Shown: positions 29,999 to 36,970 of the stretch, one piece after another
Layout: each line of letters starts with the position of its first letter
How positions within the stretch are numbered: position 1 is the first letter of the stretch
NCBI GenBank assembly: GCA_052168235.1
Contig: JBQLZK010000002.1
Location: 224,001 to 288,000, forward strand
Length of the DNA stretch: 64,000 nucleotides
Direction: 5' to 3'
Source: Thainema sp.
GTDB taxonomy: Bacteria; Cyanobacteriota; Cyanobacteriia; Phormidesmidales; Phormidesmidaceae
Translations under genes and position numbers: made by a program
The notes under the pieces: generated by a model
Databases searched by the model: none
What the model saw: only the letters and a program-made list of their open reading frames with translations
What the model was told of the DNA's origin: nothing

Positions 29999-30460
29999 TT
30001 ACTGAAAATCTGGATAGTTGCGACTGCCTTCAAACATTGATTCCAATTCCTCAACAGTTGCCAGAATTGCCTCTGTGTCTCCATCTGTAACCAATTCTTT
30101 AATCTCTTTGAGCCGTTCTAGCACTCCTGTTTGTCCATCCGGCAACAATGCCTGGAACTGATACCAATTGTAGAGGTGATATAGCAAATGATATGTCATG
30201 CCAATATCCGGTTCACGGTTGGGTTCACATAGAAACAGCTCTAAATCGACTAACCAGTCTATGGCGGCTCCAACTCCGTCCACGTAAGTATGAAAAACAG
30301 CCGTTTTCAACATTTCGCTTGGTGTATTGGGAAAGACTTGGCGAAATGCCCGTTCTGCTTCGCTACTTAGGTCACTTCGCTGTAGCAAGGTTCGTACTAT
30401 TTCCCAACGCTGCTCTCGATTCAGTGGTTTTGGTGTATGTGGATCTTTTGACGGTTGCAT
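29999..30460 (-). CDS. Hypothetical protein
   Basis: 153-aa ORF with AGGTG upstream, opposite to the surrounding operon. Confidence 0.7.
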   Translation of the reverse strand: MQPSKDPHTPKPLNREQRWEIVRTLLQRSDLSSEAERAFRQVFPNTPSEMLKTAVFHTYVDGVGAAIDWLVDLELFLCEPNREPDIGMTYHLLYHLYNWYQFQALLPDGQTGVLERLKEIKELVTDGDTEAILATVEELESMFEGSRNYPDFQ

Positions 30461-30546: not shown

Positions 30547-30681
30547 ATGACACGACTCTCCAATCTTGCTCGCAAAAAGAACATCCATTACTTCCTAATC
30601 TACTTCACTGACCTGTTCGGTACTCAGCGCGCCAAGCTTGTCCCTGCGGCTGCAATTGACGAGATGGCCGCTAGTGGTGCA
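30547..30681 (+). pseudogene. Truncated duplicate of the glnT 5' end (~45 codons)
   Basis: ...YFLIYFTDLFGTQRAKLVPAAAIDEMAASGA matches the 35660 gene start; similarity ends just before the HIP1 site at 30685. Confidence 0.9.
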
Positions 30682-30841
30682 GATGCGATCGCGCTTCTCA
30701 GAATCTGCATGCTCCAAATCCAACGAATTTTCAGGATTGATTGTTGCAAGATTGAAGATGTAAGCGGGAATACTGAGAAGTGGATCTGCTTAACCGCTGC
30801 TTCATTCTTCTCTGCACTAGCTCTCCGAAGTTTTACTGATT

Positions 30842-32572
30842 ATGTCGCGCCTCCTCGTCACGCAGTATCAATCTGAAGTTGATAGCCTCATCCGCTATGG
30901 TGGGTCGCGCAATGAAGCCAGCATTCGGCGGGCGTTTGAAAATTTGCTGAACCAGTACTGCAAGCCGCGCAACTACATGCTGGTGCCAGAGCTGGACTAC
31001 AAGACCAAGTTCAATACGACGGTTAGGCCCGATGGCACAGTGAAGGATGCTATTCGCCTAGAGCATGGCTGGTGGGAGAGCAAAGACGAATACGACGTGC
31101 TCGATGAGGAAATTGAGAAGAAGTTTGCTAAGGGCTATCCCGACGAAAATATTTTGTTTGAAGACTCCCAGACGGCGGTGCTGTATCAGCATGGGCGGGA
31201 GCAGTTGCGGGTGTCGATGCGCGATGCCGATGAGCTGGACGGGCTGATCGCCACGTTTGTCGATTACGAACGGCCTGAAGTGCGGGACTTTCGGACGGCG
31301 ATCAAAGCCTTTCGCGATGATATTCCTCACATTCTGGAAGCGCTGCGAGATCAAATTCATCAGGCCGAGCGAGAAAATGAGCGGTTCCGGGAACGCCGCA
31401 ACACGTTTCTGGAAGTCTGCCGCCAGTCCATCAACCCGGAAATTGAGATCTTCGACATCCATGAGATGTTGATTCAGCACATTCTCACGGAGGATATTTT
31501 CACCAATATTTTCCATGAGTCGCAGTTTCACCGCGAAAACAACATCGCGCGGGAAATCTCAGAAATTCTCGCCACGTTTTTTACGGGAGCGACGCGCAAG
31601 AATACGCTGAAAAGCATTGAGCACTACTACGCGGTGATCCGCCGCAAGTCGGAAAACATCGCCAATCACCACGAAAAGCAGAAGTTTCTCAAGGCGGTGT
31701 ATGAGAACTTTTACAAGGCGTACAACCCCAAAGCTGCGGATCGGCTGGGCATTGTCTACACGCCGAATGAAATTGTGCGCTTCATGATTGAGAGTGCCGA
31801 TTATTTGACCCACAAGCATTTTGGCAAGCTGCTGAGTGATCCGGGGGTGGAGATTTTAGACCCCTGCACGGGTACGGGCACCTATGTGACGGAGCTGATT
31901 GAGTATTTGCCAACCGATAAGCTGGAGCACAAATATAAGCATGAGATTCACTGCAATGAAGTGGCGATTTTGCCCTATTACATTGCGAACTTGAATATTG
32001 AGTTTACCTATCAGCAAAAGATGGGTAAGTACGAGGAGTTTAAGAATATTTGTCTGGTGGATACACTGGATCACTGCAGTGCAGCAGGCCACCAGTTTGA
32101 CCTGTTTGCTATGAGTGTGCAGAACACGTCGCGGATTCAGCAGCAGAACGATCGCACCATCTCTGTCATCATCGGCAATCCGCCCTACAACGCCCACCAG
32201 GAAAACTTCAATCAGCGCAACGCTAACCGCCCCTACCAAAGTATCGATAAGGCCATCAAAGACAGCTATATCAAGGAAGGCACTGCCCAGAACCAAATCG
32301 TTGTCTACGATATGTATACCCGCTTCTTTCGCTGGGCAACGGATCGATTAGGCAAGAACGGAATCATCGCGTTTATTACTAATCGCTCTTTCATCGACTC
32401 GAAAACCTTTGATGGCTTTCGTAAATGTATTGAGCGAGACTTTGACCATATCTACATTGTGGATACTCAATCAGATGTGAGAAACAATCCCAAAATCTCT
32501 GGCACCAAGAACAACGTTTTTGGCATTCAAACCGGAATCGCTGTGATGTTTTTAGTAAAAGCGCAGGGCTAG
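30842..32572 (+). CDS. Type IIG/ISP-like RM enzyme, nuclease + N6-adenine methyltransferase part
   Basis: RPDG...WWESKD PD-(D/E)xK-like motif; GIVYTP; ILDPCTGTG (motif I); IGNPPY (motif IV); no helicase motifs. Confidence 0.88.
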   Translation: MSRLLVTQYQSEVDSLIRYGGSRNEASIRRAFENLLNQYCKPRNYMLVPELDYKTKFNTTVRPDGTVKDAIRLEHGWWESKDEYDVLDEEIEKKFAKGYPDENILFEDSQTAVLYQHGREQLRVSMRDADELDGLIATFVDYERPEVRDFRTAIKAFRDDIPHILEALRDQIHQAERENERFRERRNTFLEVCRQSINPEIEIFDIHEMLIQHILTEDIFTNIFHESQFHRENNIAREISEILATFFTGATRKNTLKSIEHYYAVIRRKSENIANHHEKQKFLKAVYENFYKAYNPKAADRLGIVYTPNEIVRFMIESADYLTHKHFGKLLSDPGVEILDPCTGTGTYVTELIEYLPTDKLEHKYKHEIHCNEVAILPYYIANLNIEFTYQQKMGKYEEFKNICLVDTLDHCSAAGHQFDLFAMSVQNTSRIQQQNDRTISVIIGNPPYNAHQENFNQRNANRPYQSIDKAIKDSYIKEGTAQNQIVVYDMYTRFFRWATDRLGKNGIIAFITNRSFIDSKTFDGFRKCIERDFDHIYIVDTQSDVRNNPKISGTKNNVFGIQTGIAVMFLVKAQG

Positions 32573-32586
32573 ACAAGGGGCACAGA

Positions 32587-34116
32587 CAAGGGGCTTAAGC
32601 CCCTTGTTCATAAGGGAGGGGGAGAAGCATGAGCAAGGCGAAAATCTATTACTTTACGCTGCAAGATGAGCAGACCAAGGAAGAAAAGCTGGAGTGGTTT
32701 GAGCAAACCCGTCTAGAGCAAATCCTGTTTGAGCATATCACCCCAGACCGCAAGCACAACTGGGTGAATTTGACCGACAACGATTTTGATGACTTCTTGC
32801 CGCTGATTGATAAGCAGGTAAAGGCAAGTAAGTCACAAGAAGCTGTTTTTCAGCTTTTTTCAGCGGGGGTTAAGACTCAGCGCGATGAGTGGGTTTATGA
32901 CTTCTCAAAAGAAGCGCTAATTGAGCGCATGAAGTATTTCGTCGAGGTATATCAAGAGCGTCTAAGAGATGGATCGCGACGAAATTTAGACATCAAGTGG
33001 GATCGTGAGCTTGAAAAATATTTGACTAGTAACGTCAAGAAGAGTTTTCATACATCTAATATAGTTCAAAGTATTTACCGACCGTATACAAAACAGTATC
33101 TCTATTTTGATAAGCATTTCAATGGAATGACTTATCAACTTCCAAGTATTTTTCCATCAGCAAAGAAACCTAATAAGGCTATTTGGATTAAATCGGGTAT
33201 AGATGCTCCGTATTTTCATTGGGTTGTAGAGCACATCCCTGATGTGCTTACAAACGGTGGCTCTCAATGCCTCCCCCTCTATCGCTATGACGAAAACGGA
33301 ACCCGCATCGACAACATCACCGACTGGGCATTAGAGCAGTTTCGGCAACATTACAAAGCAGAGTTAGACCAAGCAGCGTCTAAGGCAGCGTCAGGCAAGG
33401 GGCTTAAGCCCCTTGTTCCCCACACAGATGTAGAAAAGCGCAGCGCAGAACAAAACGATCGCTCAGGCGAACCGGGCAAGGGGCTTAAGCCCCTTGTCTC
33501 AGCGGAGCCCCTTGTTCCCCATACATGGTGGTTTGTAACTTTCGTGACTCATAACGCTCGCGTATCCGAACGCATGGTTACTTACGGCGTCAAAAAAGGG
33601 GAACCGCTTATCTTTTCAGCCGAAGATCAAATCTTTATTGCTGAGCAGATTGCTGAAGCTGTCAAACGGTACGAAATTGCGATCGCCGCCTTCAATGTTC
33701 TACCCGATCACGTCCACATGGTGGTTGCCGCATCAACCGAAGCAGAACTGAACGAAAAGATCCGCAAAATCAAAGGTTTTAGTTCTCACCAATATCAGCG
33801 ATCGCGAGACTGGGATAAAGGTCAGCATGTTTGGGCGCAAAAATTTAACCGACAGGCGATCGAAAATGAAATTGCCCTCACTGAGATTTTGGAATATGTG
33901 CTGAATAACCACACTAAACATGCTGAACGCTGGGGCAATGAACTCATTACGATATGGAATGAGGGTGTTACTCCTGGGAACAAGGGGCTTAAGCCCCTTG
34001 TCTTAGAGGGGCCCCTTGCCTCTAGTCGGCCTCTTGCCGAAATTGTGCGAGAAGTCTGCGTTCCGCTTGAAGAGCTTTTCAGCTCTGGAGGGGGAACAAG
34101 GGGCTTAAGCCCCTTG
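32587..34116. repeat. Five copies of 20-bp perfect palindrome CAAGGGGCTTAAGCCCCTTG
   Basis: Copies at 32587, 33396, 33477, 33981, 34097; half copies near 32573, 33506, 34011. Confidence 0.95.
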
Positions 34117-34749
34117 TCTGACCAAGTTGACCAGGCAGAAATCACCAAACTCGACATCTTCCACTACACCTACGCCGTCCTCCACCATCCCGCCTACCGC
34201 ACCAAATACGAACTCAACCTCAAACGCGAATTTCCTCGCCTGCCCTACTACCCCAACTTCCAACAGTGGGCCACCTGGGGCAAAACCCTCATGGATCTGC
34301 ACCTCACCTACGAAACCGCCGCACCCTACGGCCTCGAACGCATTGATCAATCCGGCGTAGGGGCGAATGGCCATTCGCCCCTACAGGCATCGTTAATTCC
34401 CGAAGAAGACACCCCCGCCAAACCCAAGAAAACCCCCAAACCCAAACTCAAAGCCGACAAAACCCAAGGCCATATCATCCTCGATACCGATACCACCCTT
34501 ACCGGAGTGCCCGCCGTTGCCTGGGACTACAAACTCGGCAACCGCTCCGCCCTGGAGTGGATACTCGATCAATACAAAGAAAAGAAACCCAAAGATCCTA
34601 CGATCCGAGAACTCTTCAACACCTACCGCTTCGCCGATTACAAAGAGCACGTCATCGACCTACTCCAGCGCGTCTGCACCGTCAGCGTCGAGACGATGAA
34701 AATCATCCACCAAATGCCCGACACTGTAGAACATGAAGGCGAGGCATGA
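32629..34749 (+). CDS. Type ISP-like C-terminal specificity subunit with in-frame RAYT insertion
   Basis: GVKTQRDEWVY, YRPY, NITDWAL..F..HY, ITKLDIFHY.YAVLHHPAYR.KY..NLKREFPRLP, LGNRSALEW; own purine-rich RBS. Confidence 0.85.
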   Translation: MSKAKIYYFTLQDEQTKEEKLEWFEQTRLEQILFEHITPDRKHNWVNLTDNDFDDFLPLIDKQVKASKSQEAVFQLFSAGVKTQRDEWVYDFSKEALIERMKYFVEVYQERLRDGSRRNLDIKWDRELEKYLTSNVKKSFHTSNIVQSIYRPYTKQYLYFDKHFNGMTYQLPSIFPSAKKPNKAIWIKSGIDAPYFHWVVEHIPDVLTNGGSQCLPLYRYDENGTRIDNITDWALEQFRQHYKAELDQAASKAASGKGLKPLVPHTDVEKRSAEQNDRSGEPGKGLKPLVSAEPLVPHTWWFVTFVTHNARVSERMVTYGVKKGEPLIFSAEDQIFIAEQIAEAVKRYEIAIAAFNVLPDHVHMVVAASTEAELNEKIRKIKGFSSHQYQRSRDWDKGQHVWAQKFNRQAIENEIALTEILEYVLNNHTKHAERWGNELITIWNEGVTPGNKGLKPLVLEGPLASSRPLAEIVREVCVPLEELFSSGGGTRGLSPLSDQVDQAEITKLDIFHYTYAVLHHPAYRTKYELNLKREFPRLPYYPNFQQWATWGKTLMDLHLTYETAAPYGLERIDQSGVGANGHSPLQASLIPEEDTPAKPKKTPKPKLKADKTQGHIILDTDTTLTGVPAVAWDYKLGNRSALEWILDQYKEKKPKDPTIRELFNTYRFADYKEHVIDLLQRVCTVSVETMKIIHQMPDTVEHEGEA
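33355..34140 (+). mobile_element. REP-associated tyrosine transposase (Y1 HUH) domain with flanking palindromes, in frame in the RM subunit
   Basis: WFVTFVT, VLPDHVH (HUH, 33709-33717), KIKGFSS, VWAQKF, EYVLNN (Tyr codon at 33895). Confidence 0.82.
34357..34384. repeat. GTAG-type REP-like palindrome inside the coding frame
   Basis: gtaggggcgaatggccattcgcccctac, translated VGANGHSPL. Confidence 0.85.
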
Positions 34750-34753
34750 TGGT

Positions 34754-34840
34754 GCTGTGAGCAACCATTTCAAACTCTCCGATACCAAGAACAACGTCTT
34801 TGGCATTCAAACCAGAACCGCTGTCATGTTTTTAGTAAAA
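34754..34840 (+). repeat. Diverged duplicate of the MTase gene 3' end
   Basis: Aligns ungapped with 32474-32560 (accaagaacaacgt.tttggcattcaaacc.gaa.cgctgt.atgtttttagtaaaa). Confidence 0.9.
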
Positions 34841-34860
34841 ACTGCTGAGGAGAAAAAGCC

Positions 34861-35130
34861 ATGATTCAACCTACTTTGTTAGAGAAACTAGAGGTATTAC
34901 CAGAATCACTACAAACGGAAGTGCTGCATTATGTTGAATTTCTGTTAGAGAAACACCTCAAAAATAAACCACCTAGCCTTTTAGAATTACGGGAAGAATT
35001 ACAGCAGGAATTAGCGCAACTCACGCCGGAAGAAGCGGAAAAGCGTTATGGATATGGTAGCCTGAAAGGCCAGATTATCATGTCTGATGATTTTGACGAG
35101 CCGCTAGAAGATTTAGCAGAGTATATGTAA
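34861..35130 (+). CDS. DUF2281-type antitoxin
   Basis: LPESLQTEVLHYVEFLL...GSLKGQI.MSDDFDEPLED. Confidence 0.85.
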   Translation: MIQPTLLEKLEVLPESLQTEVLHYVEFLLEKHLKNKPPSLLELREELQQELAQLTPEEAEKRYGYGSLKGQIIMSDDFDEPLEDLAEYM

Positions 35131-35131
35131 C

Positions 35132-35521
35132 ATGCCGATCCTTTTAGATACTCATGCTGTCCTTTGGTATGTTGAGTCAGATCCTAGCCTTAGTGCTAAA
35201 GCTAAGGCTATTTTAGATGCCAAAAAGAATCTGTTTTTTAGTACTGCTAGCCTGTGGGAAACTGCCATCAAGCTCAATGTCGGTAAACTCCAAATCACTT
35301 CGTCATTTAATCAGCTTCTGATTCGGCTTGAGTTCCTGAATATGGAAATTTTGCCGATCAATACAGAAGATCTCAATACTTATATTGGTCTACCTTTATC
35401 GAAGAATCACCGTGATCCCTTTGACCGTATTTTGGTGGCTCAATCCATTAACCATTCAATGCCTATCTTGAGTGGTGACGAGAAATTTGATTTGTATCCA
35501 GTTCAGCGGGTGTGGGAATGA
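35132..35521 (+). CDS. vapC: PIN-domain VapC toxin
   Basis: ILLDTHAVLW, SLWE.AIK, HRDPFDRILVAQ. Confidence 0.9.
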   Translation: MPILLDTHAVLWYVESDPSLSAKAKAILDAKKNLFFSTASLWETAIKLNVGKLQITSSFNQLLIRLEFLNMEILPINTEDLNTYIGLPLSKNHRDPFDRILVAQSINHSMPILSGDEKFDLYPVQRVWE

Positions 35522-35544
35522 GCAAGGCAAAAATCTATTACTTT
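35518..35544 (+). repeat. Duplicate of the specificity-subunit 5' end
   Basis: atgagcaaggcaaaaatctattacttt, 26/27 identical to 32629-32655; ATG overlaps the vapC TGA. Confidence 0.9.
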
Positions 35545-35659
35545 GCTGCGAGATCTGAGGCGGAGATTACGGACAGAAAACCCAGAATCGTGATAATCCA
35601 AGATTGGACTGTAGCGCGATCGCGCTGATTCCCTATACAGCCTTCTTACTCCCCAACCC

Positions 35660-36970
35660 ATGACCCAACCCCTCTCTGACCTCGCCCGCGAAAAAAATAT
35701 CTGCTACTTCCTGATCTCCTTCACCGATTTATTCGGCACCCAACGCGCCAAGCTTGTTCCTGCTGCTGCAATTGACGAGATGGCCGCTAGCGGAGCGGGA
35801 TTTGCCGGATTTGCCACCTGGCTCGACATGACGCCTGCCGATGCCGACATGTTTGCAGTTCCCGACACTGATAGTCTATTCCAGCTACCTTGGAAACCCG
35901 ATGTCGCCTGGATGCCAGCGGATTTGTTTACGCCGAGGATGGATGCGATCGCACAAACGCCGCGCATGGTGCTTCAGCGAGTCCTCCAGCAGGCGCGAGA
36001 CATGGGCTACAGCGTCAAAACGGGGGTGGAATGCGAGTATTTTCTGCTGTCACCGGATGGCGAGGCGCTGTCTGATCCCTACGATCGCCAGGTGAAACCC
36101 TGCTATGACCAGCAGGCACTGATGCGGCGGTTTGATGTGATTGCGGAAATCTGCGATGCCATGCTGGCGCTGGGTTGGGGAGCCTACCAGAACGATCACG
36201 AAGACGCCAACGGTCAGTTTGAGATGAACTGGATGTATGCCGATGCGCTGATCACGGCGGATCGGCATGCGTTCTTTAAGTACATGGTCAAGTCCATTGC
36301 CGAAAAGCATGGTCTGCGAGCCACGTTCATGCCCAAGCCGTTCGCGCACCTGACCGGGAATGGCTGCCACACTCACCTCTCAGTGTGGGACACCAGCGGC
36401 ACAACGAATCTATTTCACGATCCAGAAGGCGAACTAGGTCTGTCGTCACTGGCCTACAACTTCATTGGCGGCGTAATGCATTCAGCATCAGCGCTTTGCG
36501 CCTTTACCAATCCAACCATTAACTCCTACAAGCGGATTAATGCGCCCACCACCCTGTCCGGCGCAACTTGGTCGCCCAATACCGCCAGCTACAGCGGCAA
36601 CAATCGCACCCATGCCATCCGAATTCCTGACTCTGGACGGTTTGAGCTGCGGTTGGCCGATGGTGCAGCTAATCCCTATTTACTCGCAGCGGCAATGGTT
36701 GCGGCAGGACTGGACGGCATTGCCCAGAAGCGTGACCCTGGCCCCCGCTGTGACAACAACAACTACACCGAGCCGCTGCCACAAGGTTCAGCGAAGCCTC
36801 TGCCTGCCAATCTATTAGATGCCTTGCGGCAGTTGGAGCAAAATACCGTCTTCCAGGATGCGATGGGAGCAGAGTTTGTACAGTCTTATCTCAAGCTCAA
36901 GCATCAGGAATGGAACAGCTACCACGCTCAAATTACGCCGTGGGAACGGGAAACGACGCTGGATTGTTAG
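35660..36970 (+). CDS. glnT: GlnT-type glutamate-ammonia ligase / gamma-glutamylmethylamide synthetase-like
   Basis: FTDLFG.QRAKLVPA, GAGFAGFATWLD, NDHEDANGQFEMNW, TFMPKPF..LTGNGCH, NNRTH. Confidence 0.88.
   Translation: MTQPLSDLAREKNICYFLISFTDLFGTQRAKLVPAAAIDEMAASGAGFAGFATWLDMTPADADMFAVPDTDSLFQLPWKPDVAWMPADLFTPRMDAIAQTPRMVLQRVLQQARDMGYSVKTGVECEYFLLSPDGEALSDPYDRQVKPCYDQQALMRRFDVIAEICDAMLALGWGAYQNDHEDANGQFEMNWMYADALITADRHAFFKYMVKSIAEKHGLRATFMPKPFAHLTGNGCHTHLSVWDTSGTTNLFHDPEGELGLSSLAYNFIGGVMHSASALCAFTNPTINSYKRINAPTTLSGATWSPNTASYSGNNRTHAIRIPDSGRFELRLADGAANPYLLAAAMVAAGLDGIAQKRDPGPRCDNNNYTEPLPQGSAKPLPANLLDALRQLEQNTVFQDAMGAEFVQSYLKLKHQEWNSYHAQITPWERETTLDC

Follow-up and report, generated by a model that had tools for sequence, protein, structure and literature searches.

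How does a toxin-antitoxin (TA) pair come to lie between a second copy of the end of a DNA methyltransferase gene and a second copy of the start of the accompanying specificity gene, behind the restriction-modification (RM) system that contains both? This question is raised by a 64,000-nt stretch of the genome of a cyanobacterium, Thainema sp., which we call the window and in which the locus comprises the following features:

30547–30690, + strand: 5′ stub of glnT (type III glutamine synthetase), the left edge of a variable island
30842–32572, + strand: gene A (576 aa), with nuclease, helical connector and most of an N6-adenine methyltransferase; DrdV-like Type IIL
32573–32628, + strand: first junction (fission point), with a REP-like palindrome in place of TA genes
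32629–34749, + strand: gene B (706 aa), with the last strand(s) of the methyltransferase domain, the target recognition domain and an in-frame RAYT insert
33390–34122, + strand: RAYT (REP-associated tyrosine transposase-like) domain, in frame inside B and flanked by REP doublets
34756–34864, + strand: A′, the decayed 3′ end of gene A of an old allele, with its core repeat at 34756–34840; 86% to the A of the window
34861–35130, + strand: vapB, a DUF2281 antitoxin of 89 aa
35132–35521, + strand: vapC, a putative PIN-domain (PF01850) toxin of 129 aa
35518–35544, + strand: B′, a 9-codon stub of the specificity gene of the old allele, fused to the native glnT upstream region
35660–36970, + strand: intact glnT, a host gene on the right flank

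The original prediction had described both repeats, and both are present. The first (34756–34840) is an ungapped copy of the end of gene A (32476–32560) at an offset of 2280, with 73 of 85 nt identical (86%); its start had been placed 2 nt further left, which is trivial. The second (35518–35544) repeats the start of gene B (32629–32655) at an offset of 2889, where the first 27 nt had been said to recur and 26 of the 27 do so, and a short and gapped resemblance to B continues up to 35554. By a rough binomial estimate, 2e-20 chance matches are expected in the 64-kb window for the first repeat and 7e-5 for the second, and neither has a further occurrence elsewhere in the genome. As also predicted, the ATG of B′ at 35518 overlaps the vapC stop (TGA, 35519–35521). 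At the other end, A′ contains a likely ribosome-binding site and a tail in the frame of A that ends in a TGA overlapping the vapB ATG at 34861. The end of B′ at 35544 is the point where homology to a genome of the same genus, G171, resumes. Read on, the B′ stub would give a 36-aa peptide (35518–35628), whose first 9 residues include the strand predicted by modelling to dock onto A; if made, it could compete with B, which is pure speculation.

The RM system that precedes the relic resembles DrdV of Deinococcus (PDB 7LO5/7LVV), a single-chain Type IIL enzyme of 1029 aa with its methyltransferase at residues 295–635 (bioRxiv 10.1101/2021.01.06.425610). Gene A aligns with DrdV residues 1–578 (7LO5, E 6e-202) and with positions 6–585 of 1024 of the PADLOC IIG model, and gene B aligns with DrdV residues 588–839 and 842–1026, with Pfam matches to Type_ISP_C and Y1_Tnp. 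The PD-ExK nuclease residues E25, D64, E79, K81 and K94 of DrdV are all present in gene A with identical numbering, as are the methyltransferase motifs DPCTGTG at 340 and NPPY at 446, while F304 of DrdV is aligned to Val; as in DrdV, there is no helicase motor. Unlike DrdV, the system of the window consists of two genes cut near residue 580, carries a RAYT domain between residues 839 and 842 and, in relatives, holds TA cassettes in the cut. Since the methyltransferase domain of DrdV is bounded by residues 295 and 635, the cut lies inside it. Hence, A and B together make up a DrdV-like Type IIL enzyme whose methyltransferase domain is divided at one fixed point. Being encoded by two ORFs, with a stop codon at 32570–32572, it is not the single polypeptide by which Type IIL is defined; from its sequence it is nevertheless predicted to work like DrdV. 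Both genes are single-copy, and a search for a second A or B elsewhere in the genome found none.

Two other identities were considered for this enzyme and rejected. Despite the Pfam names it is not a Type ISP enzyme (LlaGI/LlaBIII), because gene A lacks the helicase-like ATPase motor, has Pfam matches to coupler and methylase only and aligns to LlaBIII only from residue 751 on. Type IIB enzymes (BcgI, BsaXI) consist of a nuclease-methyltransferase chain and a separate specificity chain, an arrangement that the window shares. Unlike in Type IIB, however, B is one Type_ISP_C-type recognition domain, interrupted by RAYT, plus a strand of the methyltransferase fold, not a separate S subunit with two target recognition domains (TRDs), and its sequence family is that of DrdV/LlaGI.

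A structural model of the two chains (A 286–576 with B 1–243) reaches an ipSAE of 0.85, compared with 0.00 for the best control; the mark applied is reached by 116 of 157 solved complexes and by 2 of 215 mismatched pairs. The model runs agree in at least 96% of contacts with a partner pLDDT of at least 78, and B residues 5–11 are predicted to pair with A residues 535–541. Because the structure of DrdV has been solved, this pass may reflect memory of it; the model speaks for likeness, not for binding.

The repetitive elements in and between A and B deserve a remark of their own. The first-junction palindrome occurs 5 times in the locus and 8 times in the genome. The RAYT domain matches Y1_Tnp (E 2e-13) and, at 54.8 bits, stays below the cut-off of 80 of NF047646; its flanking hairpins have z-scores of −4.4 and −6.5. 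RAYT also occurs at this site of B, between the equivalents of DrdV residues 839 and 842, in relatives L020, L061, L145 and L256, and in L019 the same site holds a DUF559 nuclease with other repeats, so that it is a further slot, within the reading frame. A second palindrome family, with dozens of copies genome-wide, is found in frame in the 3′ part of B at 34355–34387.

The origin of the A′-vapBC-B′ stretch becomes apparent from the relatives of gene A. We examined the best 80 of 355, adding separately L110, which is fused; as this sample is ranked by likeness to a split allele, its proportions are not population frequencies. Among the best 80, 38 are fused, 37 are split at the same point inside the methylase domain and 5 are unresolved. 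The break holds TA ORFs in 30 of the 37 split relatives, decayed TA scars in 2 and nothing in 5, in keeping with the prediction that the junction is a cassette slot. The suggested search for the order methyltransferase-TA-specificity in related genomes was likewise successful, since 22 of the 37 carry a DUF2281-PIN cassette as A-vapB-vapC-B; 9 carry a DUF4258-YgiT/MqsA-like pair and one allele has both. Of the 30 TA-bearing split alleles, 19 have the stop of A overlapping the start of the first TA gene, and 19 have the stop of the last TA gene overlapping the start of B, which agrees with the proposed translational coupling, as far as this can be read from sequence. In the relatives, TA pairs belonging to several unrelated kinds thus occupy the fixed cut, mostly linked to A and B through stop-start overlaps. 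Two further junctions hold candidate undescribed TA-like pairs, namely an unknown 80-aa protein with an HNH nuclease (L138:1578-2287, also L261) and an unknown 93-aa protein with a MazF-like gene (L067:9753-10269). As in the window, the slot of L019 contains a REP palindrome, and in L025 and L058 there is vapB without vapC.

The split seems to be old and functional. A tree built from the junction flanks (75 rows, omitting L088 and L092 because of frameshifts) unites 36 split relatives and the window in one clade, which includes a single fused row (SH-aLRT 99; 2 changes), whereas on the tree of the A core the fused or split state changes 17 times, as is expected from block swapping. Together, the clade and the state flips indicate that there was likely a single fission event, which has since been passed on as a recombining block. 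Within the clade, TA-less split rows branch at the base (L083) as well as in deep positions. Both ORFs are intact in 22 of 32 complete split alleles, compared with 29 of 34 intact fused alleles, and pN/pS at the start of B is 0.10–0.24 in 9 pairs; with ORFs mostly intact and pN/pS low, the split alleles look alive. TA ORFs are retained in 10 of 10 broken split RM alleles and in 17 of 22 intact ones, a difference that is not significant (p 0.15). Around the RM genes, 14 of 62 loci have TA genes no more than 1 kb past the end of B; upstream of A the count is 0 of 71, and in distant bins 1 of 440. The stop of B is another slot (3′ end of B, L019–L098), where a remnant of an older B follows the TA genes in 5 of the 14 loci (L038, L045, L054, L056 and L092).

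One relative, L059, has a full-length A with this very vapBC pair in its junction and is collinear with the relic of the window (84% over 792 nt). The A′-vapBC-B′ stretch is thus a decayed junction of the TA-filled split-gene kind known from relatives, and the predicted relic of a methyltransferase-TA-specificity allele is supported. vapB lies directly upstream of vapC with a gap of 1 nt, both genes are intact, and VapB scores 86.3 bits against the NCBIfam model TA_VapB NF050009 (cut-off 60). The vapC residues D6, E43, D95, D98 and D116, which we take to be catalytic, do not vary among 10 aligned rows. A published table of TA loci in Synechocystis includes DUF2281-PIN pairs (PMC4963859). Compared with the L059 pair, vapB is at 91% and vapC at 78%, with pN/pS of 0.08 and 0.27, values that show purifying selection on both genes. 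Against the same allele, A′ has 9 non-synonymous and 5 synonymous changes, compared with 1 and 5 between intact alleles (p 0.14), and its pN/pS is ~0.5 versus 0.08–0.27 for the adjoining TA genes; a pooled Fisher test on relic substitutions was set aside because it counted the relic twice. Cross-protection by another DUF2281 antitoxin was considered and rejected, as the genome has a single copy above the cut-off. A promoter in the 3′ end of A is not supported as the reason for retention of A′: there is no plus-strand sigma-70 consensus in A′ (5 hits in the region, 6.2 expected), and an extended −10 element was not upheld, the third position of Ala being equally variable in relics and intact alleles. 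In L045, the TA pair follows B after 8 nt without an A′.

The relic is not peculiar to the window. A complete RM system followed by A′-vapBC is also present in L039, L110 and L256, with a B′ stub in L110 and L256, and in L111 A′-vapBC is preceded by only the last bases of the RM system. Furthermore, a biofilm strain ~92% identical to the window (runs X5/X6, counted as one source) has the relic order, with one contig running from the end of B through A′ and vapB to the start of vapC (34139–35176) and another from vapC through B′ to glnT (35192–36000). At its first junction, where the window has the palindrome, this strain has 589 other letters, a DUF4258-YgiT pair. This shows that the first slot changes its content while the relic persists. 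The B of this strain has a different central recognition segment (32961–33256 in the window), and its contigs break inside vapC with loose ends (35176–35192), possibly through an insertion into the toxin gene. X1 and X2, two runs nearly identical to the window, have patchy cover that usefully bridges neither junction. RNA-library contigs X6 and X7 cover the locus, and this coverage was not taken as transcription.

In a vapC tree of 58 of 72 rows (leaving out 10 near-duplicates and 4 long branches), a single clade is rejected for the genes of the five genome relics (AU p 2e-37) and also for those of the three relics with a common junction sequence (p 1e-50). A single origin of all RM-A′-vapBC relics was therefore discarded for vapC, and two junction sequences exist. 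L039 and L111 have this common junction and the same 3-nt deletion, together with different TA pairs, which points to a putative exchange of TA genes through the short A′ arm. In a class sample of 401 genomes, the A end was matched in 22 other genomes, some of which repeat alleles of the 355-relative set, and 11 of the 22 have A trimmed to its last 20–200 codons with the TA kept, a count that rests on the A end as query and thus favours A-end retention. With vapC as query, the A end is found upstream in 9 of 26 genomes by profile search, with one more by eye, and a significant B-start tail in 11 of 26. Altogether, the RM-A′-vapBC order and A-trimmed, TA-keeping orphans recur in other genomes. 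A phylum-wide DNA search with the B-end/A′ junction revealed no further junction (3 of 401 genomes matched, i.e. the window's own and two B ends only). L138 was dropped as a relic since its A is interrupted and not trimmed, and carriage by phages was rejected, the viral contigs giving one distant match (29%) with no TA match in that locus. In L147, L150–L152, L156, L157, L240 and L243, apparently free vapBC loci have a degenerate B start (17–20 of 26 nt) exactly at the vapC stop; they often end at a GCGATCGC octamer, and most have a TATAAT-like promoter of their own. Judged by these tails, such loci may descend from RM junctions.

The flanks of the locus carry traces of their own. The left glnT stub is 81% to 35672–35796 over 125 nt and ends at a GCGATCGC octamer at 30685, presumably a HIP1-like element, and another such octamer lies just right of B′, at 35616. 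The intact glnT (TIGR03105, 685 bits against a cut-off of 470) is 95% to that of G171. The hydrolase-glnT gap is a hot spot that holds two unrelated genes (312 and 224 aa) in G171 and is almost absent in several genomes. For an ORF of 153 aa inside the island (29999–30460, − strand), neither a convincing family match nor a hit among the 80 loci was obtained.

On balance, we think that the stretch is probably the trimmed leftover of an older split RM copy, ahead of which a newer copy recombined, and that the TA pair likely stayed because its loss would poison the cell. We propose that one ancient fission created the slot and that, as predicted by the A-B model, the halves reassemble as the first β-strand of B joins the sheet of A. 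Alleles with their TA pairs would be exchanged between genomes by homologous recombination, with the conserved A end and B start as arms, and such replacement would change specificity. A replacement that removes the resident TA pair would leave a stable toxin without antitoxin and be counter-selected, and in the survivors the new A-B would precede the old A-end-TA-B, of which the redundant A and B would then erode up to the ribosome-binding site and the stop codon of the TA pair. We thus infer that the repeats are both a scar and a landing pad when genomes exchange alleles, rather than a programmed switch. The proposed logic is that of TA cassettes in super-integrons, where a TA pair works against loss of the surrounding DNA and cassettes of several types gather in one place (PMC2654758); in the window, unlike there, no integrase is found among the 10 scanned proteins, RM coding ends appear as homology arms, and the TA pair survives, not its neighbours. 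Some observations stand against this explanation. The first junction of the window is TA-less where the ~92% relative has a pair, scars or nothing are found in 7 of 37 split relatives, and the order of events, with the new allele in front, is assigned without root or dating. Moreover, in the account cited here no addiction was seen for tvrAT, the pair of a pneumococcal RM locus (PMC6265443), and some chromosomal TA pairs are described as failing to stabilise DNA or prevent deletions (PMC2654758).

A bolder version, which we hold to be possible but rather doubtful, is that the TA operon itself caused the fission by entering the single-chain gene within its methyltransferase domain, where the donated stop and start codons would have kept the host gene alive. 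The enzyme would then consist of two subunits, with the specificity subunit translated only through an addictive, exchangeable cassette, which would constrain replacement of specificity and seed free TA loci across cyanobacteria as RM copies erode. If true, the cassette would be like a protein-coding intron that is never spliced.

Alternatively, the TA pair could be built into the RM operon as an additional layer of phage defence, as a guard or for abortive infection, and be kept for host benefit: once a phage shuts off the operon, VapB would run out and VapC be released, with the repeats having the same relic origin as in our explanation. TA or toxin genes in RM operons are already known, and coupled immunity and toxin genes are a published hypothesis with PrrC as precedent (PMC3506569). 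The locus resembles the PIN-type TA genes in Type I RM operons and PrrC, where RNase toxin genes are apparently co-transcribed with RM genes (PMC5499597, PMC3506569). The tight overlaps in 19 of 30 alleles per side put the TA genes on the RM message, the slot holds only nuclease-type or predicted toxin modules (PIN, DUF4258, MazF, HNH pair), and vapB and vapC are under purifying selection. In contrast, a specific protein contact is made less likely by the at least four unrelated cassette types in the slot, fused alleles that lack the slot account for 38 of the best 80 of 355 relatives, and persistence of the pair after loss of the RM genes (11 genomes) implies that the enzyme is not needed, so that we regard a guard function as unlikely. 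In the portion of the PIN survey cited here, PIN-RM arrangements were not conserved between close species and none was observed with putative Type II systems (PMC5499597); unlike those cases, the position here is fixed to the codon across dozens of cyanobacteria and lies in a Type IIL gene.

An improbable reading, of about the same standing, is that the pair is a neutral passenger, abundant TA modules landing in any transcribed, recombining intergenic spot and the relic being caught part-way through random decay with no barrier to TA loss. It would account for the 7 of 37 split relatives with TA-less or scarred junctions, for REP palindromes in the slot of the window and L019 and for vapB without vapC in L025 and L058, and ascertainment favours relics with an A end. 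However, A-trimmed loci have lost hundreds of A codons and most of B, with deletions that stop short of the TA pair on both sides; pN/pS is 0.08–0.27 in the TA genes versus ~0.5 in the adjoining A′; and TA genes lie upstream of A in 0 of 71 loci.

The original prediction also held that the repeats could recombine within the genome and excise or swap genes. In such an active switch, repeat pairs would excise B or B with the TA pair as circles and vary specificity, as in the pneumococcal tvr locus (SpnIV Type I RM, tvrAT), which like the window has a TA-like pair inside an RM locus, among specificity sequences and bracketed by direct repeats. Here, direct repeats bracket both B and B with the TA pair, a 2280-bp deletion would yield an intact A-vapBC junction, and B contains a RAYT HUH domain with hairpins. 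The tvr locus, as described in the cited account, encodes a tyrosine recombinase of its own and contains several complete TRD sequences; its circles have been demonstrated, and its TA homologues act as repressors of shuffling and show no addiction (PMC6265443). In the window, unlike in tvr, there is one specificity gene, the arms have decayed to 85 nt at 86% and 27 nt, the TA pair lies inside a former single gene, and no recombinase was found among the 10 proteins scanned with Pfam (27.9–37.6 kb). Furthermore, the 2280-bp product would discard the sole specificity gene, with no second complete B in the genome, the 27-nt stub B′ cannot supply another specificity, and the relic is kept in a strain ~8% diverged. 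Deletion joints or mixed arrangements were absent from four runs, examined as contigs of related strains with partial cover, and contigs hide rare variants; a full-length A-TA-stub product was absent from the 80 loci (best 80 of 355). This claim is hence not borne out, and we consider such a switch very improbable. Finally, an assembly error or unrelated local duplication, the alternative named alongside the original prediction, is virtually excluded because the ~92% strain in the unrelated biofilm data set has the relic order, and, although the genome is a 205-contig draft and no run contains half or more of the words of the stretch, the copies are 86% alike and not identical, the relic is collinear with the L059 junction (84% over 792 nt) and the same order occurs in three other genomes besides this one independent data set.

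In summary, all parts of this locus come from known families, and their architecture appears to be undescribed. The literature searched, with most subscription papers and supplements outside that search, yielded no account of TA genes placed where a Type IIG/IIL gene is split, a novelty on which Supplementary Figure S7 of PMC5499597 may have a bearing. Defence-system finders would miss these alleles or miscall them as broken genes. The natural split point inside a Type IIL methyltransferase fold leads to a separate, swappable specificity subunit, and is useful for understanding the origin of multi-subunit RM systems and for specificity engineering. As fused, split and TA-bearing, split and TA-less, and eroded alleles of one gene coexist in a group that includes transformable laboratory strains, this locus amounts to a natural experiment, replicated many times, on the question whether chromosomal TA pairs act as addictive parasites, guard defence operons or travel along as passengers.
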